This document shows, one piece after another, positions 3,660-64,000 of a DNA stretch of 64,000 bases. Within the stretch, counting starts at the first letter, position 1; each line of letters starts with the position of its first letter. The stretch is from Octopus sinensis (Eukaryota), in NCBI RefSeq assembly GCF_006345805.1, contig NC_042997.1:202058001-202122000 (forward strand). The letters are read 5' to 3'. The notes beneath the pieces were generated by a model. That model saw only the letters and a list, made by a program, of their open reading frames with translations. It made no database searches and was not told the origin of the DNA. Made by a program: the position numbers and the translations under genes.

Positions 3660-3703
3660 CTAACATGTGCATTTCAAGCTCTTTATGCTCTCATCAGTAT
3701 TAG
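3660..3703 (-). ncRNA. Degenerate minimal type I hammerhead ribozyme motif
   Basis: Minus strand CUAAUA CUGAUGA GAGC AUAAAGA GCUU GAAA UGCA CA UGUUAG: stems I and II pair and both core boxes are intact, but the UH site reads CA. Confidence 0.55.
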
Positions 3704-3948
3704 ATACCAAGCTGTCTGAAATGACTAAAAGCTTTTTCTTTTTTGTAATAAATCAGTAGAAATTGTCTACTGACTGTATCAAATATGTCCAAACATATTC
3801 AAACTGATCTTAAATCTTGTTTAGTTAAGTTAGTGTTAACTATTTAATAGTGGTCATTAAAAAAACTTAGAAGTAATTATAGTATGATGAAAAAACAATA
3901 TCAGTCTTTTACTAATATTTTAATTATTATGACAGGAATGATAGGAAA

Positions 3949-3988
3949 TTCCAGGCCTGTTTCAGTCTTATTAGACTTCTTCAGGAAA
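3949..3988 (-). ncRNA. Degenerate hammerhead-like motif
   Basis: Minus strand UUUC CUGAAGA AGUCU AAUA AGACU GAAA CAGGCCUGGAA: perfect 5-bp stem II between intact core boxes; UH site and stem I imperfect. Confidence 0.4.
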
Positions 3989-4594
3989 GCATAAACTTCA
4001 CGGTACTTTGTAAAGTAGTGATGAGATAATCACTAAGACATACAGTATTATACAGTACTTGGAATTAAAAATTAACATATAGCAGAGAAGAAATTTCTTA
4101 GGGGCAGCATCTGCATGAAGAACGACACTTAAGTTAGAATTAATATACTTAATGAAGTGAAGTGGCCTTTTTCACACTTTTAGCCTCACCTGGCCTCCGT
4201 GCCGGTGGCATGTAAAAAGCACCATCCGATCGTGGCCGTTTGTCAACCTCGTCTGGCATGTAAAAAGCACCCACTACGCTCTCGGAGTGGTTGGCGTTAG
4301 GAAGGGCATCCAGCCATAGAAACATTGCCAAATCAGACTGGAGCCTGGTGCAGCCTCCTGACTTCCCAGACCCCAATTGAACCGTCCAACCCATGATAGC
4401 ATAGAAAGCGGATTCTAAACGATGATGATGATGATTACTCAGTGTACCCTTTTGGTTGAAGACAAGGTTGTGATTTGAATGAGATTTGGTTGCTACTTTT
4501 AGCCAATGAAGTAACCGTATACTTTCTCCTACGTTAACTTGTGCTTCTGTAAGTGTACATGAAAGTGTCTACATGTGTATGCATGAATGTACAC

Positions 4595-4953
4595 TTTTAC
4601 TCTGCCTTAGTGAAGGCAGAGGTATTGTTTTCAGTCACGTTTGTTTGTTTGTCCATGAACAACACATCTCAAGAACTGCCTGATGGATTCGGATGAATCT
4701 TTCAGGAATGTTTGGCCATGTGACTGGCAAAAACTGATTAGATTTTGGGATTGATCCAGTACCAGACAAGGAATCTGAATTATTTTTTCCTGTCTTTTTC
4801 ATTTTTGAGAGCAGTTGGGTTCATTTTTAGTATTCTCGTTTGTGAAAGCAGTCAAGTAATAAACTCATTCTCATTTTAAAAATCATCTCTGGCTAATCGT
4901 TGGGAGGACGTTGGTGTTGCCTTGGCAGAGGTTTGCACTCTCTGAGTGCTCTT
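4595..4953 (+). mobile_element. Helentron-associated (HINE/DINE-1-like) non-autonomous element
   Basis: 5' tttt then ctctgcctt-agtg-aaggcagag inverted repeat, internal (gttt)n, 3' subterminal ggcagagg, then gcactc-tct-gagtgc hairpin; second partial copy near 22.3 kb. Confidence 0.7.
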
Positions 4954-4956
4954 ATG

Positions 4957-5036
4957 ATTATTATTATCATTATTATTACTATTATTATTATCATTATTAT
5001 TATTTATTATTATTATTATTACTATTATTATTATTG
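4957..5036. repeat. (ATT)n microsatellite
   Basis: Seen directly. Confidence 0.95.
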
Positions 5037-5250
5037 TGGGTGAACTGGCAGAATCATTAGCACGCGAGGTAAAATGCTTAGCAGTATTTCATCTGCCGCA
5101 GCGTTCTGAGTTCAAATTCTGCTGGGGTTGACTTTACCTTTCATCCTTTTGGGGTCAGTTAAACAAGTACCTGTTATGCACTGAGGTCGATATAATCGAC
5201 TTAATCCTTTCCCCCAAGTTTGAGGCCTTGTGCTTCCAGTAGAAAGGATT
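5037..5250 (+). mobile_element. SINE group C
   Basis: tggcagaatc A-box-like, gagttcaaattc B-box-like, gactttacctttcatccttttggggtc core. Confidence 0.85.
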
Positions 5251-5289
5251 ATAATTATTGCTGTTATTAAGGTGGTGAGCTGGCAGAAT

Positions 5290-6445
5290 TGTTAGCACAC
5301 CAGGCAAAGTGCTTAGCAACATGTCATCCATTTTTACATTTTGAGTTCAAATTCCACTGAGGTTGACTTTGTCTTTCATCCTTTCAGGGTTGCTAAAATA
5401 AGTACCAGTGAAACACTGGGGTCGATAAATTAAATACCAGTGAACCACTGGGGTCGATATATTAAGTACCAGTGAAACACTGGGGTCGATAGATTAAGTA
5501 CCAGTGAAACACTGGGGTCGATAGATTAAGTACCAGTGAAACACTGGGGTCGATAGATTAAGTACCAGTGAAACACTGGGGTCGGTAGATTAAGTACCAG
5601 TGAAACACTGGGGTCGGTAGATTAAGTACCAGTGAAACACTGGGGTCGGTAGATTAAGTACCAGTGAAACACTGGGGTCGGTAGATTAAGTACCAGTGAA
5701 ACACTGGGGTCGGTAGATTAAGTACCAGTGAAACACTGGGGTCGTAGTAGATTAAGTACCAGTGAAACACTGGGGTCGGTAGATTAAGTACCAGTGAAAC
5801 ACTGGGGTCGGTAGATTAAGTACCAGTGAAACACTGGGGTCGGTAGATTAAGTACCAGTGAAACACTGGGGTCGGTAGATTAAGTACCAGTGAAACACTG
5901 GGGTCGGTAGATTAAGTACCAGTGAAACACTGGGGTCGGTAGATTAAGTACCAGTGAAACACTGGGGTCGGTAGATTAAGTACCAGTGAAACACTGGGGT
6001 CGGTAGATTAAGTACCAGTGAAACACTGGGGTCGGTAGATTAAGTACCAGTGAAACACGGGGTCGGTAGATTAAGTACCAGTGAAACACTGGGGTCGGTA
6101 GATTAAGTACCAGTGAAACACTGGGGTCGGTAGATTAAGTACCAGTGAAACACTGGGGTCGGTAGATTAAGTACCAGTGAAACACTGGGGTCGGTAGATT
6201 AAGTACCAGTGAAACACTGGGGTCGGTAGATTAAGTACCAGTGAAACACTGGGGTCGGTAGATTAAGTACCAGTGAAACACTGGGGTCGGTAAATTAAGT
6301 ACCAGTGAAACACTGGGGTCGGTAAATTAAGTACCAGTGAAACACTGCGGTCGATAAATTAAATACTAGTGAAACTCTGGGGTCAATACAATCGACTATC
6401 ACCCTCCTCCGAATTTCAGGCCTTGTGCCTCTAGTAGAAAGTTCT
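5290..6445 (+). mobile_element. SINE group C expanded by an internal minisatellite
   Basis: Head at 5290-5395, tandem array, then normal tail atcgact...ggccttgtgcctctagtagaaa. Confidence 0.85.
5397..6390 (+). repeat. 32-bp minisatellite, about 31 copies (attaagtaccagtgaaacactggggtcggtag)
   Basis: Head-to-tail near-identical units with no spacers; each holds the ccagtg-aaa-cactgg hairpin. Confidence 0.97.
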
Positions 6446-6458
6446 ATAATCATTACTA

Positions 6459-6677
6459 AGGCAGTGTGCTGGCAGAGTCGTTAGCACACTGTATAAAATG
6501 CATAGCAGCATTTTGTTCATCTGTAGATTCTGAGTTCAAATATTACTGAGGACAACTTTGCCTTTCATCCTTCAAGGGTCAATAAAACAGATGTCATTTG
6601 AGCTGTAGGGTATGGTGCCATCAACTAACTCCAACTCCTGCAAAATTTCAGGCCTTGCACCTACAGTAGAAAAGATT
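6459..6677 (+). mobile_element. SINE group C, diverged
   Basis: Same head, core and caggccttgcacctacagtagaaaag tail. Confidence 0.75.
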
Positions 6678-6964
6678 ATTAGCATTGTTATTGTTAGTGC
6701 AGATCTCGTGTTTGTAACTTAAATCGATAATCTGGAAATTTTATTTATTGTTCACTTGTGGAACTGCAGAAATAACAGACAGAATATATCACAAAGACTT
6801 CACTGTTTGGTGGCAGACCATTGTTAAAGTAATCTCAAGACAAAGTGTCTGTCAACTGATAAGGTGACAGCAGAAGCTTATTTGTTGAAAGGCACACAGA
6901 CGCACACATACATCAGTGAGAGAGTGAGGTATATACACACATATATCAATATATATATATATAT

Positions 6965-7364
6965 TCTCCTTTACTCCTTTACTTGTTTCAGTCATTTGAC
7001 TGCAGCCATGCTGGAGCACCGCCTTTAGTCGAGCAAATCGACCCTGGGATTTATTCTTTGTAAGCCTAGTACTTATTCTATCGGTCTCTTCTGCCGAACC
7101 GCTAAGTGACGGGGACGTAAACACACCAGAATTGGTTGTCAAGCAATGCTAGGGGGACAAACACAGAAAAACACACACACACATACATATATACATATAT
7201 ACGACAGGCTTCTTTCAGTTTCCGTCTACCAAATCCACTCACAAGGCATTGGTCGGCCCGGGGCTATAGCAGAAGACACTTGCCCAAGATGCCATGCAGT
7301 GGGACTGAACCCGGAACCATGTGGCTGGTTAGCAAGCTACTTACCACACAGCCACTCCTGCGCC
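6965..7364 (-). mobile_element. Full-length young SINE group A
   Basis: Near-identical reverse complement of 35090-35493; internal (TA)/(TG) tract. Confidence 0.92.
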
Positions 7365-7534
7365 TATATACATTCTTTTATTCTTTTTCTTGCTTTAGTC
7401 ATTTTTGACTGCTGTCATGCTGGAGCATCACCTTAAAAGGTTTTGTGGAACAAATTGACCTCAAGGTATCAGTCTCTCTCTTGCCGAACCACTAAGGTAC
7501 AGAGATGTAAACAAACCAGAGAACCCAGTCATGG

Positions 7535-9019: not shown

Positions 9020-9127
9020 ATTAGTTGCTTCCCAACCACATAGTTCTGGGTTCAGTCCCACTGCATGGCACCTATATCAAAGCCTTATGAGTGGATCTGA
9101 TAGACAGAAACTGGAAAAAAACCTGTC

Positions 9128-9166
<39 letters not shown>

Positions 9167-9380: not shown

Positions 9381-9671
9381 AAATATTTATTCACTTTTAT
9401 TTTGTCTTTTGATTTTCAGCCTTAAGTTCATTTATTTTATTATAAAAGATACACAAACCCTTAAGCACACATAGGCTTAGTCATGGCTTTTTAGATAAGA
9501 AGTATGCATGGCAGACACTTGTTTTTAGGTTCACTCCCACTGTATGGTACCTTGAGCAAGTGTCTTCCTTGCCTCAGGCTGACGAATGTCTTGAGAGGGA
9601 ACTTAGACAGAAACTGCATGGAATCATTCTATACACTCTTATACAGTCATAATACATGGCTGTTTGGTTAA

Positions 9672-12598: not shown

Positions 12599-12826
12599 AA
12601 TTCAGATTATGATGAACGTAAACAAACAAATGAAGTTTGCTTTAGAAGTGTTGAAATGTCTTAGAAAGTTAAAGAAGTGATTTTAAATTATCAAACGCGG
12701 AATAATGCTAATAATATAGCTTGAACAGGATAAGCTACCACTGTTTTGCAGAAAAAATGTGTTGGCGGCCGGCCATGAGACACGAACTTACACCTTCGTG
12801 ATATATACATATATGTATATATATAT

Positions 12827-43965: not shown

Positions 43966-45294
43966 ATTATTGCATGAAATATAATTAGAATCAAAGTAAG
44001 TAGCAAACACGGTGCCATTATTTTCCCATTTATTGCTTATAGAAACTTTTTGGATAAAGAGAAGCATTCAGAATGTTGATACTCTCCCTAGTAAAGGACC
44101 ATAAAACCTATTTGTAATTTGGAATGTGAGAGATCCCTAATCTTAGATTTATTATGTGGTAGATTGAAAACTTTGAAGGAGAGAAATTTCCTCCTTGTAA
44201 TCAGTATCAAGGGTCCAACTGCATGTTGGGGTCTATTTTGGGTATTTGGGTTATGAACGTTTTGGGTTCAGTCTCACTACAAGGTGATACCTTGGGCAAG
44301 TATCTTCTGCTATAGCCTTGGGTCAACCAAAGCCTTGTGAATGGACTTGATTGATGGAAACTGAAAGAAGCTCATCATATATATATATGTATATGCTTTT
44401 GTGTGAATGGACGTTTGTGTTTCTTTACATCTGTGCTTTTTCACACAAAATCACTGCACCAACAATTTGTTAGTTTTATACCTTTGAAATGTGCAGAATA
44501 AAGTATCCATTACTTGAAAGTAGATAGGGGTTGGTGACCAGAAGGGTGTCAGGCTATAAGACAGAAGCTCAGTAATGTAACCAAAACAAAACTTTTTCTT
44601 GTTTGGAGGATGTGGAGGTACTTATCAAAAAGCATAACTTTAGTAGCCAGTCTTTGGTGGTTCCATGTTGAAATATATTTACTGTCAACATAGGAATGTC
44701 AGACTGTTGACCAATTAGCTGACTTAATATCTAAAAAAATCAAACAGAACTTTACCTGCAAAGAGGAGGTGGGGGTCATGTTTGATTCCTAGTCACTCTA
44801 GTATATGATACAATAAGTATTGGTCAGTCTAAAGTTCATGAGAAGAGACGGACTTCAGAACTTAAAAATGGTAAAACAGAATATGACTGCTGGTAATGTT
44901 AATAAACTGAAAGCTGCCTGTACAGTGTGTACTAAAATCTAACTCTCCTAAGATACTAATTATTTTAAAGTACCTTCCTTGCTGGATACCACGTATACCA
45001 CTTGTTACAGTCAGACATTTTAAACTTATTTATTAAAAGCTTTTTAGCTGTAAAGTAGGTTTTAGCTCTGAAGTAGAAACTTTTCATCTTGAAGGATGAT
45101 TATCTTATAAATTCACAAACCTTTATATGTAAGTGTATGCGATTATATTCGGTGCTTACTGTTGAATAATTTCTTACTTAGTTTATTCCTGTTTAGATTT
45201 TAGAGTGCTTTGAAAAAGTCTCTGGTCATTCTCTTTCTTCCACACAATTACAAAACTGAAGAAATAAGTTCAATTTCCTGGAAGACAAATATTG

Positions 45295-45640
45295 CTAGAC
45301 TACCCTCTGACTGGCCCCCGTGCTGGTGGCACATAAAAAGCACCATCCAAATGTGGTTGAGGCCAGTGCCCTCTGACTGGCCCCCATGCCAGCGTCATGT
45401 AAAAAGCACTATCTGAACGTGATCAATGTCAGACCCACCTGACTGTCTCCTGTTTCAGTGGCACATGAAAAGCACCCACTACACTCTCGGAGTGGTTGGC
45501 ATTAGGAAGGGCATCCAGTGGTAGAAACTCTGCCAGATCATATTGGAGCCTGGTGCAGCTGCTGGCTCTCCAAACCTCAGTCAAACCATCCAACCCATGC
45601 CAGCATGGAAAACAGACGTTAAACGATGATGATGATGATG
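45295..45640 (+). mobile_element. Group B 3' end
   Basis: Tandem units, core, (gat)n tail. Confidence 0.85.
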
Positions 45641-46143
45641 AGAATGTCATGCTAAACAGTAACAAGAATCCAAACTAGGGACCTCATTAGATCATTGGCA
45701 TCAAGGGTCTGAGGACAAGTATGGAATCTTCCTATTCAAATATTTCTGATCAGACTTTGTTTAACTGTATCTTATAAGAAACTTCGTAGTGGTTGCTTTC
45801 AATATTGAGACACACACACACTCTCACTCTCTCTCTCTCTCTCATGCCCATTGTAGCCATTCTTTCTAATTTCTCTATAAATGTGAATGTTTTGTCTTCA
45901 ATTCCCCCTTATCCAATATGTTGGTTGGATTTGTCATCAAGGTATTATCTCACTTGTTTATACCAGTTCAAAATTTTATCTGAAGATGGTGGATTGTATG
46001 ATGTAATTTATGAATGCATCAATAAAACTCTCAAAGGTGAAATGATACTAAAACATTTTATAATCAAACCCCAGGCTGACCAAAACTTTGTCACAGAATT
46101 AGGTAGATGAAAACTGAAAGTGCTCTATTTATGTATGTGGGTG

Positions 46144-46521
46144 CAGTGCAAGATTAATCATTAAGCAAAATGATCACATGCTTAGGGCATCAAAAGAAGA
46201 GGAGGGGCACCACAGAAATAGTAAATGGTTTACAGCACAAAAGAAATCACTACAAACTTGCTAGATTAATATTTTGGATGCCTTATCTCTAGTAAGTATA
46301 GAAGCAGATGTGTTATGTGAGATAAATTTTGAGAGAAAACTTTTCCAATATAAATAAAGTACAGAAATTAACATTATTTTCCATCTTACTGTTAGTTTTG
46401 AAAAGATGGAAAGTAAAAAATTATTTTATGGTTAATTATTGTTTATATTTTGAATTATGGTACAGGGGTCACCAAAATCTTTTAGGTGCTTAAGGCCTCT
46501 AAAGGTCTTAATCCAGCCCTA
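46144..46521 (+). mobile_element. hAT-type MITE
   Basis: Termini cagtgcaagattaa / ttaatccagccct; colinear with 60558-61362. Confidence 0.8.
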
Positions 46522-46974
46522 TGTGTGGTGTATCCTTGCATTGGAATGCAATAGTAGTAAGCAAGCAGCGCATCATCATCATACAAGCAATGTCCTTAGT
46601 TTTTGACCTTCCATAGAAACTTGTTTGGAAACAGGTGAAGTTCAGCAACAGGAAGGGCACTAAATTATGATATAACACAAATATAACCAACTGTTGTTAG
46701 GTGGGGCATTTATGTTTTATATAGATTATTCTTTTATCCTTTTAATTGTTTCAGTCATTTGACTGCGAGCACGGTGGAATTGATAGAAGAGAGTACCAGT
46801 TGAACACTGGGGGTCAATGTAATTGACTTACTCCCTCCCCTAAAATTGCCGGCCATATGCTAAAATGTGAAACCAATATTTTATCACACTTCTCCCAAAA
46901 TATCTGTTTGTTTCTACAAATGTACCAAAAGTTGTGAAACTATTTCACGGGTTTTACTAAAAATTACTTCTAAT

Positions 46975-47260
46975 ATTCGAGTGAGGTCGTTGTCAGTGCC
47001 GTTGGACTGGCTTCTGTGCAGGTGGCACATAAAAAACATCATTTGAGCATGGCTGCTGCCAGTACCGCCTGACTGACCCTCGTACCGGTGGCACGTAAAA
47101 GCACCCACTTCATTCTCGGAGTGGTTGGCGTTAGGAAGGGCATCCAGCTGTAGAAACTCTGCCAGATCAGATTGGAGCCTGGTGCAGCTATCTGGCTCGC
47201 CAGTCCTCAGTCAAATCGTCCAACCCATGCCAGCATGGAAAGCGGATGTTAAATGATGAT
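46975..47260 (+). mobile_element. Group B 3' end running into (ATT)n
   Basis: Core and tail. Confidence 0.88.
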
Positions 47261-47677
47261 TATTATTATTATCATGATTATCATTATTATTATTATTATT
47301 GTTATTATTATTTCAAAGACTATAAAAGTGCATTGATACATTCCCACTTTGAAGATGATTTAAATGATACATAACCATTTTGTTTTTCTTAAAATTATCT
47401 CCTGACTAAATTTATTTCTAATTATAACCATAAATTGCACAAAATCGAAATAGTGGCATTGATATTTTATATGTGTTGCTATCATTCTTATTTCTGGTGG
47501 TTAAAAAACTCCTCATAAACAATTTAACGTCATTTTTTTTCTTTTATTTATAAATCTTCTAATACTTTATTTCATACTTTTATCGTTTAAATTAAAAATG
47601 CTTCATGCATACGTACATATGCACTACCAATACCTGCATACAAAAAAATTCCAAATTGTAGCTATATGTATATATAA

Positions 47678-48132
47678 GCCAAGCAAAATTGCAGTCATGG
47701 AAGATACTAGTGTTACGCAAATTGGCACCCATGCTGGTAGCATGTAAACACACCCCAGTATCACATGAATGGCACCCATGCCAGTGGCACATAAAAGCAC
47801 CCTTTGCACTCTCGGAGTGGTTGGTGTTAGGAAGGGCATCTAGCCATAGAAAATCATGCCAAATTAGACAGGAGTCTGGTGCAGCCTTCCAGCATGCCAG
47901 CTCAGTCAAACCATCCAACTCATGCCAGCATGGACAACAGACGTTAAATGATGACGATGATGAAGAGGATATATACATATGGTTGGCATTAAGAAGGGCA
48001 TCCAGCCGTAGAAAACCATGCGAAATCAGACTGGAATCTGGTGCAGCCTTCCAGCTTACCAGCCTTGGTCAAACCACCCAACCCATGCCAGCATATACAA
48101 TGGACGTTAAATGAAGAAGAAGCAGAAGAAGA
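47678..48132 (+). mobile_element. Two tandem group B 3' ends
   Basis: Copies at about 47678-47963 ((gat)n tail) and 47980-48132 ((gaa)n tail). Confidence 0.85.
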
Positions 48133-48140
48133 TACACAAA

Positions 48141-48175
<35 letters not shown>

Positions 48176-48178
<3 letters not shown>

Positions 48179-48376
48179 GATTGCCATGTTGAATCGCTAG
48201 CTTCTGCACGCATTTTTTTTCTCTGTGTTTCTTTTCTGTGTATCTTTCTGTTGAAGAGCGTAGGCTCAAAACGTAAAAGACTTGTTTTATTTATTTTCCT
48301 GAGCGCTATACTAATACAATTGTTTGTTTGTACTCCACCTGCCTTCGTCTTTTGTTTAATTTCAAAAAGCTTCCCG

Positions 48377-48378
<2 letters not shown>
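48176..48378 (+). mobile_element. Microsatellite-embedded element of about 200 bp with a hammerhead-like fold
   Basis: Between (TATC)n and (TA)n; homologous to 61817-61996; TCTTT CTGTTGA A GAGC GTAG GCTC AAAA CG TA AAAGA at 48243-48280. Confidence 0.7.
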
Positions 48379-48429
<51 letters not shown>

Positions 48430-48857
48430 TGCATTCTCTTCTGATATTCATATATTCATTTAATTATTTTTTCTTTTACATTTCATTATATGTAAACCCC
48501 AAACACTTTCTGTCTTGTGTTGTCCCCCTCATCCTTTGCCCTGGTGGCAAATAAAAGAAATCATTATTATTATTATTATTTCTGCTTAAATTTTATATTT
48601 AATCAAGATTTGAATTAAAAACACTTAAATGAATGATGCAAAGATTCCATGAAGATTAAGCATTCCCATTTTAAAATGCAGTCCTTGAGTCATGCAGTTT
48701 CACCTACATTTGTCTAGGAGTTTATTTATCTATTTTATATTCAGTCTCCAAAAAAATCAAATAAAAGATGCACAGTTACCATTATGTGGGAAATATATCA
48801 ATACTATGTCTGTTTTGTTTGTGCATTTTGGAAAACACACACACATTGATACATACA

Positions 48858-48908
<51 letters not shown>

Positions 48909-49431
48909 TATATAGTATGTAGTATTTTAGTAGAGATTGATTTGAACTGAAATTCCATTTGATGTTTTTATTCATCATAATATAATGATATATCGACAAG
49001 TTAAATCCAGAAGATCAAAATTATTTGAAGATATCATAAATACACTTTTGTCTTGCTGACAAAAGGTTATTGATTCTGTCATTACTTATTTTGATGAATA
49101 AATTTCATTTTTGATGCTGCATAGCTTTCAGTTTTCAAGAAAAATACTTTCTATCGCTTTTTTCCTTTTTCCATTTTCCTTTCTTTTTTTTCAAATCAGT
49201 ATAGATTATGTGAGTGTGCAAGGCCGTGTAAAACAAAGTTATGGAGTTACGAAGATGTAAGTGTGTGACTGTGTGAATGCTAAGAATAAAGGAGAGAATA
49301 GAATGCTTCCATATGAATTAAATACATCTTTAATCTGTTCATGTATGTACTTATTCACATTGTGTACTCGTATTTACAGCAGAGATCTCATTTATGCTGC
49401 TTGTTACATGCAAAAACCTAATGCACTTTAT

Positions 49432-49444
49432 ACATATATATATT

Positions 49445-49522
<78 letters not shown>
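49432..49522. repeat. (TA)n(GA)n microsatellite
   Basis: Seen directly. Confidence 0.95.
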
Positions 49523-49526
<4 letters not shown>

Positions 49527-49644
49527 TACAGTGTACATTCAAACACATAAGAGATAACCAATAATAGGATATCTGACTCACTAGAAAGAGCAGTTAAAAC
49601 TCCAAGCCACTAATAGTTGCAATTCTGAAAGGGAATGAAAAATA

Positions 49645-49761
49645 AAAACATTTACCCTATTTTTCCTAGACTATGCATAGTTTCTGCAATCTTATATAAT
49701 TTAAAATAAAGTAATTCTAATTTATATCTTGTGCTGCTTCGTCAGTAGGATGTAAATTTTT
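49645..49761 (-). ncRNA. Type I hammerhead ribozyme candidate with complete core
   Basis: Minus strand UCCUA CUGACGA [long stem II] GAAA CUAUGCAUAG UC UAGGA; GUC cleavage triplet; stem I continues as AUUUAC/GUAAAU beyond an internal loop. Confidence 0.8.
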
Positions 49762-49972
49762 CCTTCTCGCTAGACCACCGGTAACAAAGTATTTTTTTAT
49801 GAATATTTTTGCTACCCTAAGATTTTTTAAATATATATATTTATTTATATATTATGATTGTGTTAGTGGTATTAACTTTGCACATCTAAAATGCACATAT
49901 GTGAGTAAGTGCACATTTGTGATAAATGCATTTTTATTACAAATATTAGAAATACGTATTGTTGCATCACAG

Positions 49973-50062
49973 TTTCTGCTGTATGAGGACCCAATCCAGA
50001 GCAGAAGCCTCGACATCAGCAATTCTCGACATGGGATCTAGACCTCCCAGTATTTCCGCAAG
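49973..50062 (+). CDS. Candidate 90-nt internal exon (phase 2-2) of an unidentified gene
   Basis: tgttgcatcacAG acceptor, AAG/GTAATA donor, GC-rich non-repeat island, one open frame FCCMRTQSRAEASTSAILDMGSRPPSISA; no homology recognised. Confidence 0.5.
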
Positions 50063-50119
50063 GTAATAGTGGGTGGGCTCTTTGGGCTTCATTCAAGTTT
50101 CTTTTTTCTTTTTTGTTAA

Positions 50120-50347
50120 CTCTTTAGCATTCAGTTTACTCTGTCAAGTGTAATGCTTTATTTCTTCACATGGTTTTGAATTAATCATGCATTATCTTGT
50201 AGCTTTGAAATTTTGATGATGTGCTTGTTTATTTTTAGAATGACATTGTAGGGTAAGTGTGATAGGTTGGATTTAGCTATAGGTTGGTTTCAACACAAAA
50301 CATGTAGAACATTTGGGCTGGATATGGCCAGTTTAAATGCTAAAGGG
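50120..50347. mobile_element. TTAA-flanked MITE, second family
   Basis: TTAA at 50116-50119 and 50348-50351; ctctttagcatt / aatgctaaaggg termini. Confidence 0.85.
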
Positions 50348-51304
50348 TTAAAGTAGTGATTTTTTTAGTATTAGAATGTTTTGTGCTATTGGCTCTGACT
50401 CTCTGTACTTTGAATTCAAACTCCACTGAGGTCAACTCTGCCTTTCATTATTTCAGGCCTAGAAACTGTAAGGCCATCAGGCCAAATGCTTTGCAGTATT
50501 TTTTCTAGCTCTTTGTGTGCTGAGTTCAAATCCAGCCATGACCTACTTGATTGATTGACTTAATCCATTGCCCTTTTTAACACCACCATCTGGCTACTGG
50601 CTACCTTCAGTGCCTCTACTGGAATACACTTTGTTATAAGCTTTTGTGCCAGGGCTTTGGTTTGTGGAGGACTTTGTCACAACAGCCTCAGAGACATTGT
50701 GAAGGGTCAAGGGCACTGATGTTCCTTCTGAATTGAAAGATCAAAGAAATATATAATTTATTAATTTTTTGTTTTAATTGTTTCAGAAAACAAACAAAAC
50801 TGGTGGTTGGTATGTACATAAATATACACATACAAATAAAGGCCTTATGGCAATGAGACAGTATTATGACAAGACATGTGTAGACTCCTACACAGTTCCT
50901 GCTTGCTAAATTCATTTACAAGGCATTGGTCATCCCAGGGCTACAGTAAAAGACATTTGTCCAAAGTTTGGTGCAATGGGACTAAACAAGAACCCTAATT
51001 GTTGCAAATGAATCTTCTGAACCTTACAGCCATAACCAGGAACATTTGTATTCATATCATTTCCCCATTAGTACAATAATGACATGAGTATTATCAACCG
51101 ATGTAGGTAGTGATAATGTTGCTGGCAACTTGTGTCTCCAGGAGAAATATTTATAGCCTGTCCATAGTTCCATACATTTAAGAAACCTTTTAAATGGAAC
51201 ATCCTTTTAATCTTTTCTTGGCCGTTCAATGTTGAATGAATAGTTGAAAAACTAATTGGAAATGTATAAATGTGGCACATAAGGTAATTACTTAAAGGTG
51301 TCAG

Positions 51305-51340
<36 letters not shown>

Positions 51341-51857
51341 GTGTGTGTGTCCGTGTGTGTGTGTGTCCGTGCGTGTCAGTCACAGTCATTCTTGAACGTG
51401 ACCAGATGCATTTTAAGAATTAGGTTTCAAGCTAATTGATTTTACTTAGTAATTTAAGCTTCATTGAAAATGCTCTGATTTCAAATTGTCCACTTTGCTG
51501 ATATTCTTATCATGGCACCCTTCACTCACCCCTCTTTTTCTGTGCGTGCACACAAACACACACACACACATGTAATCTAATATATATATATATATATATA
51601 ATGTGTATGTGTATATGCAAGAATATACGCATGAAATACATTTCATACTACAATATTAATATTAAGATGACTATCAATTTGTTTCCGACACAGTGCTGTG
51701 TTTCGATTGCAAACTCAGCCTCATCAGTAGTAGAGTGTGTGTATACAGCATTCATTTTAAATAAAGCACACTTACACACTGCTTGTGTTAGGTAAAGAAA
51801 CCAACACCATTTTTTTTAAAGTAAGTTATATATTCACACCAAAGCCTCTCTCTCTCT

Positions 51858-51924
<67 letters not shown>

Positions 51925-52434
51925 CTCCATTAATCTCATTATATTCACTTCAGAAATAAAACTGCAAAGCTGCCATTTATGCAAGTTTATATTATCACTA
52001 TTATCCATCTTTATCTCTGTCTCTCTTCCTTCCTCTCCCACCCCCTCTCTCTCTCTCTCGTTACAGGTCTATTGACTATGTAACATATTGTGGTGTTTAA
52101 TGGTTGTGTAGGCAACAAGTTCACCTGACAGCCATGTGGTTCTGAATCCACTGCATAGCACAATGAGTTAATAACTTCTACCATGGCCTTGGGTTGACCA
52201 AAAACTTGCGAATGTAATTTCATACACAGGAATTATACACGAGATCATAAGTGTCACTCAAATGATTTTGTATAAAAAATATAGAGATAAGTGTTTCTCA
52301 ATAGCCTTTGTATAATATTTCAGGATATATTCAAACATCAGATAATTTAGGAGGCTACAGACTCAGATTACTCTCTGAAGGAGTGGAAACGTGAAGCTCA
52401 AAGAATTGGCAATTTAGAGTCATTCAGTTAAAAT

Positions 52435-52860
52435 CATCATCGCCGTCGTTGTTGCTTAACATTTACTTTCCATGCTGGTGTGGGTTGGATAGTTTGAATG
52501 AGAACTGGCAGGCCAGGAGGCTGCACCAGGCTCCAATCTGATCTGGCAAGGTTTCTACAGCTGGATGCCCTTCCTAATGCCAACCACTTTACAGAGTGTA
52601 GTGGGTGCTTTTTATGTGCCACTAGCACAGGAGCCAGTCAGGCGGCACTGGCAACAGCCACACTCAAATGGTGCTTTTTATGTGCCACTGGCATAGGTGC
52701 CTGTCAGGCGGCACTGGCATTGGTAATGCTCAAATGGTGCTTTTCACATGTTACTGGCACAGATGAAGTCCAGCGGCACCAGCATCAGCCATGTTCAAAT
52801 GGTGTTTTTTTTATGTGGCACAGGTGCCAGTCTGGTGGCACTTGCATTATCCACGCTCAA
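52435..52860 (-). mobile_element. Group B 3' end with about four internal units
   Basis: Reverse core and repeated ggtgctttttatgtgcc boxes. Confidence 0.85.
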
Positions 52861-52921
52861 AAATGTATCATAAAAGTAATAAAAATATTACATTTTGAGT
52901 CCTATAATTTATATTTAATTT

Positions 52922-53627
52922 TCATGTGTCGGTGGCACATAAAAACACCATCCGAAGACCCGGCGACGTAGACAGTCCACCTGTGCATACCTTCCTTCTT
53001 GTGACACTTGTGAAGACCTGTTGAGGCAAGTGAAAATCAAATCAAATCAAAACAAATCAAAATAGATGAACATAAATGGAATTTGTATCTATGTGGTACC
53101 AATGCCGGTGGCACACAAGAAAATCATCCGAACGTGGCCGTAGCCAGTACCGCATAGACTGGCCTCCGTGCTTTGGGGACGTAACAACACCATCCGATCG
53201 TGGCCGTCCGCCAGCCTCATCTGGCACCTGTGTCGGTGGCACATAAAAACACCATCCGAGCGTGGCCGTCTGCCAGCCTCGTCTGGCACCTGCCAGCCTC
53301 ATCTGGCACCTGTGTCGGTGGCACATAAAAACACCATCCGAGCGTGCCGTCTGCCAGCCTCGTCTGGCACCTGTGTCGGTGGCACATAAAAACACCATCC
53401 GAGCGTGGCCGTTCGCCACCTCGTCTGGCACCTGTGTCGGTGGCACATAAATCACCCACTACACTCTCGGAGTGGTTGGCGTTAGGAAGGGCATCCAGCT
53501 GTAGAAACACTGCCAGATCTGACTGGCCTGGTGCAGCCTTCGGGCTCCCCAGACCCCAGTTGAACCGTCCAACCCATGCTAGCATGGAAAACGGACGCTA
53601 AATGATGATGATGATGATGATGATGAT
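52922..53627 (+). mobile_element. Longest group B copy (3' UTR-like region, tandem units, tail)
   Basis: gaagacctgttgaggcaagtgaaaatc leader, repeated tgtcggtggcacataaaaacaccatccga units, (gat)n tail. Confidence 0.9.
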
Positions 53628-54010
53628 GGTGCCCCAGCATGACCACAGTTTTAAAGCTGAAATCAATTAAAGAAATTAGTGTCTGTTTTCCAAACTGTTC
53701 ATGGGTCTGATGGGTGAACAAGATCTGATATCTTGGGAGGAATGCATCATACGCCATTATCTGCTTTACCATGGTTTGTCCGACTGGATGCCCTTCCTAA
53801 TGCCAACCACTTAAGAATGTACTGGATGTGTTTTGCATAGCACCAACACTAGTGAATATTGCCTCGTAATTTCCAAGACTAAGAGAGAGGAGTGGTGAGG
53901 TACAGTAAGATGAAAGGGAGAGTCTTGTGGGAGTGGAAAGAGTATCAGAGTAGATATTGATGGGGAGAGAGTATAACAGAGAAGAGAGGAAGGGGAAAGT
54001 ATAAATATTA

Positions 54011-54157
54011 TGGTAAGTAGCTTGCTAACCAACCACATGGTTCCAGGTTCAGTCCCACTGCGTGGCATCTTGGGCAAGTGTCTTCTGCTATAGCCCCGGG
54101 CCGACCAATGCCTTGTGAGTGGATTTGGTAGACGGAAACTGAAAGAAGCCTGTCGTA

Positions 54158-54208
<51 letters not shown>

Positions 54209-54209
54209 G

Positions 54210-54277
<68 letters not shown>

Positions 54278-54509
54278 GTGTGTGTGTGTGTGTTTGTGTG
54301 TGTTTGTGTGTGTCTGTGTTTGTCTCCCTAGCATTGCTTGACAACCGATGCTGGTGTGTTTACGTCCCCGTCACTTAGCAGTTCGGCAAAAAGAGACCGA
54401 TAGAATAAGTACTGGGCTTACAAAAAGAATAAGTCCCGGGGTCGAGTTGCTCGACTAAAGGCGGTGCTCCAGCATGGCCGCAGTCAAATGACTGAAACAA
54501 GTAAAGAGT
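54011..54509 (+). mobile_element. Young SINE group A with long internal microsatellite
   Basis: Near-identical to 35090-35493 except for a short 5' truncation and the expanded (TA)(TATG)(TG) tract. Confidence 0.92.
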
Positions 54510-54924
54510 ATATACATTTGTGTGTGTGTGTTTGAGCATATTGTCATCAGCAATGTAAAAATCAGCAAAGAAAATGAAAACAAAATAATTTTTAATTAAA
54601 AAATAAGCCAGTACTTTTGAATGAAAATATCCTGTGTGGTATTTGTTTCACTAAGTTCAATCCCCTGTCAGTTTTTCCATCAGAGGTTCATTGAAGCAAT
54701 GATTGGTTTGTTTTAAAACTGTAACCAGTTGCAATATCTAAAAAAAAAAAAAATTAATTTAGATTAAAAATAAAAAATTAAGAACAGTGTAAAGAATAAA
54801 CTAGTTCAAAAATATTGGAAAATATATTTCTTTTTATATTTAATTTCTTTGTTATATATCTTAGCAGAGAAATATGGAAATTTTTCTGAAAATTTAGATA
54901 TTTCATTATTATTTCAGCATTTAA

Positions 54925-55335
54925 GGTGGCCAGCTGGCAGAATTGTTAGCATGCTGGATGGAATGCTTAGCGGTATTTTGTCTGCTGTTACGTTCTGAGT
55001 TCAAATTCTGCCGAGGTCGACTTTGCCTTTCATCCTTTCGGAGTCGGTTAAATAAGTACCAGTTACGTACTGGGGTCGATATAATCGACTTAATCCGTTT
55101 GTCTGTCCTTGTTTGTCCCTTCCGTGTTTAGCCCCTTGTGGGTAGTAAAGAAATAGGTATTTCATCTATCTATATGTTCTTAGTTCAAATTCTGCTAAGG
55201 TCGACTTTGCTTTACATCCTTTTGGGGTCAATAAATTAAGTACCAGTTTACCAGTTGCACACTGGGGTTGATCTAATCAACTGGCCCCCACCTCCACAAA
55301 ATTTGGACCTTGTGCCTAGAGTAGGAAAGAATATT
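54925..55335 (+). mobile_element. Dimeric SINE group C
   Basis: Same gtaaagaaata/ggtattt junction as 15459-15871. Confidence 0.88.
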
Positions 55336-55681
55336 TGGTTTGTTTCCTTTCTTTTGTCAACTGTGTGAGGTTTATATCTCTAGACATGTTTAATTAAGAC
55401 TAAACCATCATGATAAAACAGATAATAGAAAAAATATAATTAAACAAATGCAGGTGATTGTACTATTACTACTAATACTTTGTCAATTTTTTTTTCTCTT
55501 CACTTACCCAATGTTTTGATTAATTAAATGTCTGATGTATTTTTTTTTCTTTTCATTTTTTTTGTGTTTTTCAATTTTTTTGGTTTCAGTCATTGGACCT
55601 GGTCATGCTGGGGCATCACCTTGAAGGATTTAAGGATTTAGTCAAACAAAATGTCCCCCAGTACTTATTTCTTCAAGTGAT

Positions 55682-56052
55682 GCAGGCATGGCTGTGTGGT
55701 AAGAAGTTTGCTTCCCAACCACATGGTTCCAAGTTCAGTCCCACTGTGTGGCATCTCAGGCAGGTTTTCTATTATTGCCACAAGCTGACTAAAGTCTTGT
55801 GAGTTGATTTGGTAGGTGGAAACTGAAAGAAGCCTATCATATGTGTGTGTGTGTTGTGTCTGTGTTTGTCCCCTACCACTGCCTCACAACCGGTCCAGTA
55901 TTAGTGCATTTATGTTCCTGTGACTTAGCAGTTCAGCAAAAGAGACTGATACAATAAGTACCAGGCTTAAAAAATAAAGTACTGAAGTCAATTCATTGAA
56001 CACTTCAAAGCAGTGCCCCAGCATGGCCACAGTCTTAACGATTGAAATAAAT
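55682..56052 (+). mobile_element. SINE group A, older copy
   Basis: Head, short (TG)n, ccagcatggccacagtc tail. Confidence 0.82.
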
Positions 56053-56269
56053 AAAACATGATACATATAAGCTATTTACATAACATATTTCTCTGCATGA
56101 CAACTGGTTTAATTTGTCTATTACTAAATTTCTCTTATTTTGTTGTATGTTCTGGTAAAGTTAGAATTAGATAAAGTGAAAACATATCTTTGAACTAATA
56201 TTTCTTTGTTTCTGCTAACATGTAATTTTGAAATACCACGTTTCTTATATATATATATCTCAGGGCAAT

Positions 56270-59750: not shown

Positions 59751-60557
59751 CTCTCTCTCTTTCTCCTCCCACTTAATCTACTTTCACTCTGCTTTGTCAC
59801 CAACAACCTGAATCAACAACTCACCTTATTATGATCATAAATCATTTCAATTATTATTATTATTATTATTTTAGAAGGACACAATGATACAATCCTCAAC
59901 AAATAATGAAGGCCTCATATTTTTATACCAACAATATATTAAATTTAATCATAAGACTTAAGCCAGTCATATCTAAGTCCTAATCTTTCTTATGAAATGT
60001 AAAAATGTTGTGAATTATTATAATATGGTAAACTTCACATTACCATAGCTGCATAAATGACATTTCTAGACACAGACAGTGATATTAGACTTAATATTTC
60101 GATCCCCATGACCGAGGGTCAGGAGTTCTCAGATACTAGCATCATTCTCACTGGTTCATTGTGTCTTTATGCTCTTTTAGGATCAGTGGGCCCCAAGTCC
60201 TCTTTTGACCTGATTTACTGTCAGGATTGACTCTATTAGGCTTCACTCCTTTGTAGATATTCACAGACAATGAAGGTTTACATATGAAATTGTCCTTCTT
60301 CTCATTTAACTGCCAAGCCCAGACTGCTCACCCAATCATACTGTCTGTGTTGCTGAAGACACAGTAGTACCCTCTCCTGGAGGCATGTGGTTACGTGGTT
60401 AGGGTATTTAGCTCAAAATTATATTTTCTCTTGTGTAGTCAACTTTGCTACAAGAACTCAGGCCATGTCTTCAGTCTGAGGGGAGTTTCCTTCTTTTCAC
60501 TCCTGAGTGTTGGAGATTCTACAAAAGGTCATGAGTATTGTCTTCCTTGGAACAAAC

Positions 60558-60988
60558 CAGTGCTGGATTAACCACTAAGCATAATATCAGCATACTTAGG
60601 GCACCAAGGGACGGAGGGGGCACCACAGAAATGGTAACTGGTTTACAGTACAAAAGAAATCACTTAAACTTACTAAAATAATATTCAAAGTGGTTTACAT
60701 GGTTGGAAATATAATTCTGACATGTTCATGGTGTAACAGTGAGGATCAAATCAAAGACTTTGCTGTTAAAAGAAGTAGGAGAAATCTTTTTTTCAAATGT
60801 AAATAAAGTGGAAGTATACAAAAATAAACATTACTTTCCATCTCACTTAGTTTTGTCTCATTTTGAAAAATAAAAATCTTATTTTATGGTTTATCATTGT
60901 TTATATTATTTACATTATTTACATTTGTAATGTACATAATTCCTCATCTCTTAAATATAGAGGTGTATTATTGTTTATATTTTGAATT

Positions 60989-61038
<50 letters not shown>

Positions 61039-61077
61039 TCATCATCATCGTTTAACGTCCGTTCTCCATGCTAGCAT

Positions 61078-61129
<52 letters not shown>

Positions 61130-61362
61130 CCACTACACTCATGGAGTGGTTGGCGTTAGGAAGGGCATCCAGCCGTAGAAATATTACCAGATCAGACTGG
61201 GCCTGGTGCAGCCTTCTGGCTTCCCAGACCCCCAGTTGAATTGTCCAACCAATGCTAGCATGGAAAGCGGACGCTAAATGATGATGATGATGATGATATA
61301 TATATGGGGGCAGCAAAATCTATTAAGTACTTAGGGCCTCAATAGGTCTTAATTCGGACCTG
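60558..61362 (+). mobile_element. hAT-type MITE with perfect 8-bp TSD and nested insertions
   Basis: gaacaaac at 60550-60557 and 61363-61370; termini cagtgctggattaa / ttaattcggacctg. Confidence 0.9.
61036..61297. mobile_element. Head-to-head pair of group B ends separated by (TA)n
   Basis: Minus stub 61036-61080; plus copy 61126-61297. Confidence 0.88.
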
Positions 61363-61785
61363 GAACAAACATTTCAAAAAGAACCAGGGCAGCACATTAA
61401 CGATCATTTCAAGCCATTATCTCTGCCACCCAATTTGAACAAACAATAAACTTATATACAGACTGAAAAAGTTACTATATTAACCACACAAGGAACTGAG
61501 ATTGTTGCAAAGCAAGCAAATCAATTTTGTCTGCTGCAGCCAGTGTCAGAGTCTTCAATCATCTGAAAACAGACTGGATAGTAAAACAGATAACGTTCCA
61601 TGCCTGCTACACTGCACCCTACACACTTATAATATTCCATGAATGCTAGAATATTACAATGCACTCTGCAGATAGAATATTTTATGGCCGTGACATTGCA
61701 TTCTGTAGACATAACACTCTATGGTTGACAGCCTACAATATATATGTATATACAGCTCTCTCTCTCTCTCTCTCTATGTATGTAT

Positions 61786-61816
<31 letters not shown>

Positions 61817-61817
<1 letters not shown>

Positions 61818-61996
61818 GCTAGCCACTACACATTCTTTATTTTCTCTCCTTGTTTCTTTCTGTGTTCTTTTCTGTGGAAGAGCGTAGGCTCGAATTGTTA
61901 AAGACTTTTTCACTTCCTTAGCATTATACTAATACATCTGTTTGTTGTCTACACCACCTGTCTTTGTCTTTCGTTTTTTTTTTTGTGAATTCTCCC
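61817..61996 (+). mobile_element. (TA)n-flanked element homologous to 48176-48378
   Basis: TCTTTT CTGTGGA A GAGC GTAG GCTC GAAT TG TT AAAGA; shared tatactaataca and ccacctg segments. Confidence 0.75.
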
Positions 61997-62208
61997 TATA
62001 TATATATATATAATATATATATATACACTTACATATATGTACATACCTACATATATATGGATATATACATGCATATATGGGTACAGCACATCAAAAAAAC
62101 CTGGACAGAATGAGAAACGAAAACATAAAAAACAAAAACATAGAAAACAAACTATTTTCGAACAACGAAAGAAACAAATAGAGAAATGAGGCAGGCAACA
62201 TAAAGAGC

Positions 62209-62302
62209 ATTCCCTTCATCAGTTGTGCCCTGTTTTATCTACTCTGTATAGAAGGTAAGGAACATGGAGTAGATAAAACAGGGGACAACTGATGAAGGGA
62301 AT
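62209..62302. repeat. Inverted repeat, 36-bp arms (35/36 match), 22-nt spacer
   Basis: attcccttcatcagttgtgccctgttttatctactc versus gagtagataaaacaggggacaactgatgaagggaat. Confidence 0.92.
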
Positions 62303-62369
62303 ATTCTTCTTACCACACAGCCACATATATTGTCAAATATACATTTCACATGTACTGGAATTTACAGTG

Positions 62370-62756
62370 ATGCCAGGTCAGATTGGAGACTGGTGCAGCC
62401 TTCTGGCTCCCCGGCCCTCAGTCAAACCGTCCAACCCATGCCAGCATGGAAAGCAAACGTTAAAAGATGATGATGATAGGCTGTTGCATTGGGTGATATG
62501 ATATGCTTGAGAAGACTTGTTGAATCAAGTAAAACCAAAATCGTAGCCAAGCCCACCTGACTGGCTCCTGTGCCGGTGACACATAGAAAGCACCCATTAC
62601 ACTCTCGGAGTGATTGGCGTTAGGAAGGGCATCCAGTTGTAGAAACATTGCCAGATTAGATTGGAGCCCTGTACAGCCGCTGGCCTTCCAGACTTCAATC
62701 AAACCATCCAACGCTTGCCAGCATGGAAAATGGATGTTAAACGACAACGACGATGC
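62370..62756 (+). mobile_element. Two tandem group B 3' ends
   Basis: Copies at about 62370-62477 and 62500-62756. Confidence 0.82.
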
Positions 62757-63341
62757 CATGTTGCCCAGTATAGAATCATGGAGTATTGTACCTGTAAAAT
62801 GTATTGTAATAGTTGCAAAGTGTCATATCCATAGCTGTAGAATGTAACGTAGAATATGGTTTGACCCACCCACCTCAAAAGTTGATTGACGTTAGTAGTC
62901 AGAGAAAAAAAAAAAAAAAGGAAAAGTAAAATAGCAAAGACCGTGACATAAAAAGCAAGCATAAAATTTGTTGATGTAATCCTCATCCTGTTCTTAGTGG
63001 ATTGACAAATGGTAGTAAACGATGACTGTGACAGTGTAATATATTGTTTGATATAAAACACTCCAGACGTAGCAGCTTAAATGGATTTGTTGCCTTTAAC
63101 GTACTGTCTGGAAATAAACCTAGCAGACACATACACACGCACACACGCAATGGCTATGACATATTTTAACTTTCCCCGACTTGTGTTATGAATAATTTAA
63201 AATAAATCTTTCTTAAGTGTACTGTACTTAAAACACTGGAAATGCTATGCTGTTGGACACTTTTAGCTTTGACATGGTGCTAAAATCCAAGAAAAAGTCT
63301 TAGACTTTTGGTTAAGCTAAAAACTAAATTTGTCAAACATT

Positions 63342-64000
63342 AGGTGTGGCTGTGTGGTAAAAAGTATGCTTCCCAACCGCAGGGTTCCAATTTCAGTCCC
63401 ACTGCATGGCACCTTGGGCATGTGTCTTGGATTGACCAAAGCCTTATGAATGGATTTGGTAGATGGAAACTGAAGGAAGCCCATTGTGTATATACATATA
63501 TATATATATTGTTATGTCTGGAGAGAGTCATTTTCTTTTAGTGCCTTATAGTTTAACACACTTACCAATAAAATTTCCACTCATTTACTTATTTATTTTT
63601 CTAAAATTTTCGTTGCATCTTGTAACCTTTTCAATAGTTTAGACTCAAAACTATTGAAAAGGCTGCAAGATGCAATGAAAATTTTAGAAAAATAAAAAAA
63701 TAAATAAATGGAAATTTTACCGGTGAACGTGTTAAATTATAAGACACCAAAAGAGAATGACTCTCCAGACACAACAGAATATGCTTCAACACACAAACTC
63801 ACATAAAAAAATTTTGCAAACCAAATCCAAAAACGAAATGTGTGTGTGTGTATATGCTCAAGTGTATGTCTTTGTTCCCTACCACTACTTGTCAACCAAT
63901 GTTGGTGTGTTTATGTCTCTGTAACTTAGCAGTTTGGCAAAATAAACTAGTAGAATAAGTAGCAGGCTTACAAAAAACCAGGGTTTGATTTGGTCAGCTA
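63342..64000 (+). mobile_element. SINE group A split by an insertion in its internal microsatellite
   Basis: Head 63342-63485; 3' half resumes at about 63840. Confidence 0.82.
63510..63776. repeat. Fold-back element, arms about 130 bp, 7-nt loop
   Basis: tgttatgtctggagagagtcatt...ttttcaatagttt / agactca / aaactattgaaaa...aatgactctccagacacaaca. Confidence 0.92.

Follow-up and report, generated by a model that had tools for sequence, protein, structure and literature searches.

A family-wide U6 hammerhead core and other hammerhead-bearing insertions in a 64-kb window of the Octopus sinensis genome

Introduction

The window analysed here comprises 64,000 nucleotides, positions 202,058,001 to 202,122,000 of contig NC_042997.1 in the Octopus sinensis assembly GCF_006345805.1 (2.72 Gb), and contains hammerhead ribozyme-like motifs in short inserts and fold-backs. 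The original prediction, made from the letters of the window alone, held that intact hammerhead cores occur on the minus strand only and that selection removes active sense-strand ribozymes from a plus-strand pre-mRNA. The question raised by this locus is what these insertions are, and whether their orientation reflects selection. We consider it very probable that they are independent and mostly decayed insertions of several hammerhead families, at least one of which is the pseudo-long terminal repeat (pLTR) end of an autonomous Penelope-like element (PLE), and that they were likely target-primed at TA-rich sites in orientations that are likely due to chance.

As a "system", this is ordinary PLE biology, and the claim of strand selection fails its first test. 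The points of interest to a ribozyme specialist are the A6U core of the family here called A and the permuted fold of the family here called E, with cleavage being a prediction in both cases. Somewhat short of an even chance, in our estimate, is the broader proposal that PLE-type elements with working novel hammerheads are at hand, comprising a minimal type I hammerhead with a fixed A6U core under selection across subfamilies, in which variation is confined to the free positions 7 and 17, a four-helix permuted hammerhead in family E that would set the 5' end of new insertions, and an ORF-less retrozyme of 489 nt with a long stem II that would use the same machinery.

Results

Hammerhead families in the window

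The window has a GC content of 36%, and (TA)n tracts and short interspersed nuclear elements (SINEs) are abundant. We distinguished five hammerhead-bearing families (A, B, C, F, and K), one permuted-hammerhead family (E), and one tRNA-SINE family (G). The prediction of at least four unrelated hammerhead sequence types was borne out, as families A, B, C, K, and F have type I folds and relatives elsewhere in the genome, and the predicted inserts or fold-backs at 12.6, 48.2, 49.5, 61.8, 62.1, and 63.5 kb were all present.

The two core boxes alone are frequent, with 17 matches to CUGANGA...GAAA in the window (5 on the plus and 12 on the minus strand), and each motif was therefore judged against its own family. 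One of the plus matches, at 9,579, was set aside by eye as a decayed SINE piece. Rfam fails to detect these motifs, as none of its 144 matches in the window (E≤1) was to a hammerhead. Single short motifs folded no better than shuffled sequences (z from -1.1 to +0.7), with the exception of family K (z=-2.5). The tests were limited to chromosome-scale contigs, because small contigs resemble a co-sequenced organism. It was noted that gene-dense small contigs such as C2502, C8702, and C9497 encode short-intron kinases and myosins and probably stem from that organism.

A U6 core in family A

The plus-strand motifs with broken cores in the original prediction are those of two family A copies:

48178..48378, plus strand: family A copy of pLTR size with a CUGUUGA (A6U) core at 48,248 and a private G12A lesion, preceded by (TATC)n at its 5' end and followed by (TA)15 at its 3' end
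61817..61996, plus strand: family A copy with a CUGUGGA core at 61,872 and the lesions A15.1U and C15.2U, with (TA)n on both sides

Exact matches to a 29-nt pattern of the family A motif, in which positions 6 and 7 were left free, were collected genome-wide. There were 13,349 matches (6,585 forward and 6,764 reverse), and none for the reversed control. Position 6 was a U in 99 of the first 100 matches, and when A6 was forced only 133 of the 13,349 were retained. The core of family A is thus CUGUNGA genome-wide and not the canonical CUGANGA with A6. The same was seen in 29 copies that had not been selected by motif, 28 of which carried U at position 6, while the remaining copy was shifted by a deletion. 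The A6U substitution is a trait of the family A lineage rather than a loss after insertion. The two plus cores do carry damage of their own, in the form of the private lesions in GAAA listed above, but the CUGUNGA "break" itself is the family norm.

All features of the minimal hammerhead ribozyme (min-HHR) were present in the 29 unselected copies, including stems I and II, the insertion 9.1, the G10.1-C11.1 pair, GAAA, a palindromic stem III, and UH (H being A, C, or U). All four bases occurred at position 7 (in 10, 8, 6, and 5 copies), and position 17 was A, U, or C but never G; other variation was mostly found at CpG sites. Since positions 7 and 17 are the free positions of the hammerhead, this pattern suggests selection on the master lineages. 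Loop II was as conserved as the core, however, and recent ancestry therefore explains part of the conservation.

Family H, a sister of family A with homology downstream of the motif, has copies of about 210 nt with near-uniform ends, and A6 was observed in 98 of the first 100 of its 3,035 exact matches. Exact copies of family A with U6 are thus about 4 times as numerous as those of family H with A6. The 2 families constitute a natural experiment on the role of the PLE hammerhead, one core base apart. If the A6U core cuts, the natural core repertoire is wider. Otherwise, the fold is retained by a very successful PLE in which it does not catalyse cleavage, and a protein-binding or structural role would be indicated.

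The PLE min-HHR described by Cervera & De la Pena 2014 (PMC4209133) resembles the motifs of families A, B, C, F, and H in its short stem I, the extra base between positions 9 and 10.1, the G10.1-C11.1 pair, and the palindromic stem III, as far as the accessible part of that paper goes. Most copies there are also single and truncated, and the U3-A8 core of family F has been described for Schistosoma. The U6 of family A sets it apart, as A6 is kept in every row of Fig. S3 (56 representatives), with no cephalopod among the rows available to us. In the portion of another study that we consulted, a natural A6C core was reported to cleave slowly, with k_obs below 0.1 per min (PMC3088659). No natural A6U core was described in the titles or abstracts of the papers listed by a literature search. 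The dimeric PLE hammerhead variants of Lunse et al. 2017 may include such cores, and the supplements of PMC8557442 and bioRxiv 10.64898/2026.07.22.740005 may also bear on the matter.

Family A is the pLTR end of an autonomous PLE

Longer copies of family A run into an open reading frame (ORF) with PLE-type reverse transcriptase (RT) motifs, a C-x4-C-x2-C linker, and GIY-YIG, for which Pfam gave matches to RVT_1 (E=6.7e-08) and GIY-YIG (E=0.0013). A single ORF with RT and, at its C-terminus, GIY-YIG was read through frameshifts, as separate pieces, in the loci L031 and L032, and homologues of the protein with RT plus GIY-YIG occur in other animals. The linker, which precedes the endonuclease in both loci, corresponds to the CX2-5CxxC feature of the endonuclease-containing (EN+) PLEs Neptune and Nematis in the sections of Craig et al. 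2021 (PMC8557442) at our disposal; further likenesses are the C-terminal GIY-YIG, a DKG motif, and partial tandems. Family A is an EN+ PLE, putatively of the Neptune/Nematis type as judged by the linker feature.

Out of 40 matches listed for the 5' untranslated region (UTR), 20 copies were fetched. The hammerhead pLTR was complete upstream of the 5' UTR in all 20 copies, each of which had U6 and continued through ...CCCGTTATATATTA(C/T)GCG. The internal TATA run of these 20 copies can also be written ...CGTTATATATTA(C/T)GCG. Short copies end in the internal TATA run, followed by (TA)n. The family A repeats in the window are the pLTR end of an autonomous PLE.

The preferred 5' start in many copies of families A and H is located about 75 nt upstream of the core, while other family A copies form a truncation ladder. 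A full-length element that starts at the hammerhead cut site had been suggested by L032 only, and was ruled out by the 20 other copies. It was also noted that the full-length family A copy of L032 is adjoined, on the minus strand and immediately upstream of its 5' pLTR, by another fold-back insert with a hammerhead-like centre.

TA tracts and the proposed insertion mechanism

Copies of family A in introns were often adjacent to TA tracts. (TA)5 or longer was found within 60 nt of the 3' end in 13 of 18 copies (background 5.7%) and within 110 nt of the 5' end in 6 of 18 (background 8.7%), whereas 3' adjacency in control SINEs was 0/123 and 4/184. The TA association was also strong in family H (6/9), weak in family F (2/7), and absent in family B (0/5). 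The TA-rich stretch beside the family E fold-back at 62.1 kb is partly the element's own sequence. The proposal that microsatellites serve as landing pads is thereby sustained for family A, and the TA excess on the 5' side argues for insertion into pre-existing tracts.

TA targeting is already known for PLEs and is not new. Microsatellite ((TA)n) targets, inverted 5'-truncated copies, and one-sided tails, all of which recur here, are described for PLEs including the Naiads in the parts of Craig et al. 2021 (PMC8557442) consulted. In vitro, an anole PLE nicks AT-rich DNA and initiates reverse transcription internally, according to the accessible part of that report (PMC11167929), and the ending of family A copies at the internal TATA run fits such internal initiation.

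Insertion would proceed by target-primed reverse transcription at TA-rich sites, where the nicked 3' end of a (TA)n tract may pair with an internal UAUAUA of the element and prime the reaction. Early termination would leave 5'-truncated and pLTR-sized stubs, and snap-back or template switching would yield the fold-backs of families E, F, and K. Lone minimal hammerheads with a palindromic stem III would need a partner copy or an element protein in order to cut, so that a single stub in an intron would be nearly harmless whichever way it points, and would decay neutrally.

A retrozyme-like unit in family K

Family K is represented by two joined pieces in the window:

49524..49752, minus strand: family K copy; its type I hammerhead, with C3 at 49,745, appears intact and has a long stem II, an extra A before GAAA, the stem III ACUAUGCAUAGU, and C17; 3' end at (GA)n(TA)n
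49753..49830, plus strand: inverted family K piece, joined to the 5' end of the preceding copy

Exact matches to a 27-nt family K pattern numbered 21 (11 forward and 10 reverse), and 20 copies were fetched (521 to 821 nt per fetch). They showed an ORF-less head-to-tail unit with a period of 464 to 489 nt in 7 of 7 loci tested, the longest open frame in L308 being 51 codons, and the family is therefore non-autonomous. Inversions occur on the 5' side of the copies, and (TA)n is found at their 3' ends; the fetches contained more-than-unit partial tandems only.

The helices of the motif were paired in 94% of cells, as compared with 31% to 42% when slid, and the closing pair of stem I swaps between A-U and G-C (8 vs 9), which is the only compensatory change. 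Covariation over the whole family was not above that of shuffles (2 pairs; 377/500). One circular unit folded better than shuffled sequences (z=-3.7, 40 shuffles). It was noted that in 2 distant relatives, L229:141-246 (minus strand) and L136, both the long stem II and the extra A that precedes GAAA are preserved, with compensatory changes in stem III. The motif in L229 is intact, has a stem I of 8 bp, and is in sense orientation within an ion-channel intron.

On the strength of its sequence, family K is predicted to be a retrozyme-like unit. Like the non-LTR retrozymes (Cervera & De la Pena 2020, PMC7229834; Li et al. 2026, bioRxiv 10.64898/2026.07.22.740005; both as far as consulted), it lacks an ORF, is low in GC, is arranged head-to-tail, carries a type I hammerhead, and is found together with PLEs. 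Unlike these, its unit is about 489 nt, as compared with reported circles of about 170 to 400 nt and vertebrate consensus units of up to 972 bp, and its stem II is very long, an extra A precedes GAAA, and it occurs as partial tandems with 5' inversions. Non-LTR retrozymes have been derived from PLE pLTRs in the latter study.

This raises the alternative that the short copies in general stem from true non-autonomous masters, either pLTR-only mini-elements or retrozymes, and not from truncation of a full-length RNA. We regard this as a possible explanation, if not the one that we would choose. The regular ORF-less unit of family K and its circular fold speak for it, as does the start shared by many copies of families A and H. 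The pLTR of family A is, however, continuous with the full ORF, its 5' ends also form a truncation ladder, and transcription that begins within the pLTR would account equally well for the shared start. For family K, the descent from non-autonomous masters is likely right, and compatible with independent insertion of several families as proposed above. The original prediction of a Penelope-dependent community of non-autonomous elements can be retained with respect to the PLE link, through family A, and the ORF-less family K. It does not apply to the family A copies, which are pieces of an autonomous element, nor to the insert at 12.6 kb, which is a tRNA-headed SINE.

Intact cores are not confined to one strand

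The remaining hammerhead-like motifs of the window are located in 4 features:

3568..3776, minus strand: copy of family C with a minimal type I hammerhead (C3 at 3,697), in which stem I is 6 bp long and U16.1 is changed to C; predicted inactive
3848..4037, minus strand: family B copy; minimal hammerhead with C3 at 3,984, C16.1, and a broken stem III palindrome; predicted inactive
51680..51735, minus strand: singleton motif in which CUGAUGA (51,727) and GAAA are combined with a hairpin stem III but not with a stem I
63507..63838, no strand assigned: fold-back of family F that interrupts the TA stretch of a SINE and has a tail of about 60 nt on one side; one minimal hammerhead with U3-A8 per arm, at 63,654 on the plus strand (with a stem II lesion) and at 63,634 on the minus strand

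The motif at 3,697 has C at position 16.1, where 4 of 4 relatives have U, and is therefore predicted to be inactive. The same prediction follows for the motif at 3,984 from its C16.1 and its non-palindromic stem III; family B is old, with 68% to 88% identity, and U16.1 is kept in 3 of 7 relatives. No relative of the motif at 51,727 was found by BLAST or pattern search of the genome, and it may be a chance match or a very old relic. Among the four minus candidates, only the family K motif at 49,745 satisfies every rule and looks intact. Besides it, the minus arm of the family F fold-back counts as intact. This family had been overlooked, and has U3-A8 cores on both strands, with both boxes kept in the plus arm (UUGAAAA...GAAA AU UU). 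The pattern U3-A8 is typical of the family: of its 2,116 exact matches, the first 100 include 95 that carry U3 and 97 that carry A8. The split of the five motifs originally considered, 3 vs 2, corresponds to a Fisher p of 0.10. The confinement of intact cores to one strand does not hold, and the apparent pattern is an effect of small sample size combined with a misread family trait.

No autonomous partner was found for family F: there was no common continuation past the tail among the 100 of 106 matches listed, for a pattern that barred A as the next base. It was noted that in intact copies the tail arm of family F, at 63,747-63,836 on the plus strand, opens with an ATG and a short reading frame, which recalls PLE pLTRs in which the start of the ORF is included; no full ORF was found.

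The strand of the host gene

No host exon was identified in the window or its surroundings by any of the approaches used. Pfam searches of 26 ORFs in the window returned nothing convincing for a host gene, heuristic scans for exons over 244 kb were divided almost evenly between the plus (23 candidates) and minus (21 candidates) strands and revealed no host exon, and assembled contigs compared with 44,001-56,200 revealed repeat-derived joints only among the matches listed. A candidate last coding exon about 46 kb downstream (L046:6481-6651, plus strand), GC-rich and of 56 codons with an acceptor site and a stop, had no usable homologue and was rejected.

Because no host exon was found, the host strand rests on skew. 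Among 24 neighbouring 10-kb blocks, 23 had more T than A, which was also the case on the sense strand of 107 of 140 intron blocks, and a control SINE was distributed 21 vs 56, in the direction seen in sense introns. A plus-strand host is thus favoured indirectly, by base and SINE skew, and this part of the original prediction is upheld to that extent.

Strand orientation of the motifs in introns

The orientation of the motifs was examined in introns of 17 gene spans, which were delimited by co-linear Pfam exon matches (myosin, ion-channel, and kinase) and not by annotation. The sample comprised 140 of 169 planned blocks, or 1.38 Mb, of which one gene contributed 510 kb (37%). Lesion-free motifs were found 9 times in sense and 10 times in antisense orientation, with 2 matches in the reversed control. 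Under a broader rule, which allowed a long stem II and required G10.1, the numbers were 8 vs 14 (p=0.29; 95% confidence interval of the sense fraction 17% to 59%), with no match in the control.

Counted by family, sense vs antisense copies were 10 vs 8 in family A (after 7 weak cross-matches to family H were dropped), 5 vs 5 in H (one antisense copy being weak), 3 vs 5 in B, 12 vs 8 in F, 3 vs 3 in I, and 0 vs 5 in E (p=0.06). The sample contained no match to families C or G, and K only as 3 distant relatives. SINEs without hammerheads were distributed 86 vs 115 (p=0.048), 114 vs 125, and 123 vs 173 (p=0.004), with a SINE bias of about 42% sense. The sense ratio of the ribozymes did not differ from that of two of these SINEs pooled (Fisher p=0.66). 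Neighbouring exact copies of family A within 100 kb were on the same strand in 23 of 47 pairs.

The antisense bias of intact motifs, as checked in this sample, was hence not significant, and a modest deficit in sense orientation may remain, given the low power. We consider it improbable that active hammerheads on the sense strand of introns are eliminated by purifying selection, perhaps only those of monomer-competent types such as family K. The lean of the broader rule and of motifs with a longer stem III (2 sense vs 7 antisense, by eye) would agree with it, as would the position of the sole intact motif, that of family K, on the minus strand, where the skew points to a plus host. Retrozymes of Xenopus are moreover depleted in introns, although strand is not touched upon in the part of bioRxiv 10.64898/2026.07.22.740005 that we consulted. 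Yet the strand difference is not significant, SINEs that lack hammerheads are already skewed in these introns, 8 to 9 intact motifs are present on the sense strand, including the family K-like motif of L229, most of the minus motifs in the window are broken as well, and the "broken" plus core is family-wide. The claim that selection clears sense-strand ribozymes is therefore not upheld. Strong selection is not to be expected either, since the minimal PLE hammerhead is reported to be inactive as a monomer (PMC4209133) and the PLE hammerhead not to cleave unless the PLE protein is present (PMC11167929), as far as the consulted parts of both papers go.

Several observations nevertheless weigh against independent insertion with orientation by chance. 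The broader rule leans towards antisense, as do family E and the motifs with a longer stem III, and the only intact motif in the window, that of family K, is antisense to the presumed host. The intron sample is dominated to more than a third by one gene, with gene spans that derive from Pfam exon matches. No autonomous partner was found for family F among the 100 of 106 matches listed, and for families B, C, E, and K none was seen and none was sought. Finally, the priming at the internal TATA run is a step that we infer.

A predicted permuted hammerhead in family E

The fold-back at 62.1 kb belongs to family E:

62013..62311, minus strand: family E fold-back with arms at about 62,211-62,300 and CUGAUGA on both strands (62,222 minus and 62,289 plus)

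A structure was set by eye from 8 uncut copies, the kinship of which was uncontrolled. Its four helices are maintained in 87% of cells, and there are 10 pairs out of 24 in which both sides change, a number reached by none of 500 shuffles, as evaluated on the same 8 sequences from which the structure was drawn. The cleavage strand is followed by GAAA and then by CUGANGA, which is the order of the type-SGC hammerheads. The partner of the strand that precedes GAAA is located upstream, with compensatory changes in 4 of 5 pairs, and the 5' strand of stem II does not directly follow CUGANGA. A reading of family E as a half core was dropped in favour of the permuted hammerhead.

The copy in the window appears to be a non-circularly permuted hammerhead truncated to its 3' part; this copy starts 4 to 6 nt after the predicted cut, has a mutated GAAA, and folds back. 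Five truncated copies met by chance start about 0 to 18 nt past the predicted cut, by eye. A tally of start points was discarded, as it mirrored the truncation of the query itself.

Type-SGC hammerheads (Eckert et al. 2023, PMC10085705) share with family E the order of the cleavage strand, GAAA, and CUGANGA as well as the four helices, to judge from the consulted part of that paper. They differ in that the 5' strand of stem II is taken from upstream of the cleavage strand in family E and not from after CUGANGA, and in that the SGC ribozymes are almost entirely metatranscriptomic and not animal repeats. If the predicted fold is correct, family E would be a permuted hammerhead in an animal genome that is missed by standard descriptors. 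Naiad_Ovul is tagged as HHR_half_core in a metadata file, and a 14-nt family E motif had no match in the one supplementary file that was checked for a link to Naiad.

That the motifs are chance matches in AT-rich DNA, as might be thought from the 17 matches of the two boxes, the unremarkable folding of all short motifs save family K, and the singleton at 51,727, is barely conceivable and is refuted for families A, B, C, E, F, and K by family sizes of tens to thousands of copies, by 0 to 2 matches in reversed-sequence controls as compared with 19 to 22 real ones, and by the compensatory changes in K and E.

Other insertions and repeats

The insert at 12.6 kb is the following:

12603..12801, minus strand: 5'-truncated SINE-like copy of family G that ends at (TA)n, without a hammerhead

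Full copies of family G have a tRNA-Thr-like head, and ARAGORN called a tRNA in 4 of the 7 loci scanned. A further fold-back family, here called I, was observed in the loci L189, L204, and L152, and has a U3-A8 core with a palindromic stem III of 2 or 4 nt. Finally, positions 5,399-6,384 of the window consist of a 32-nt unit repeated 31 times in tandem with 97% identity, apparently derived from a SINE segment.

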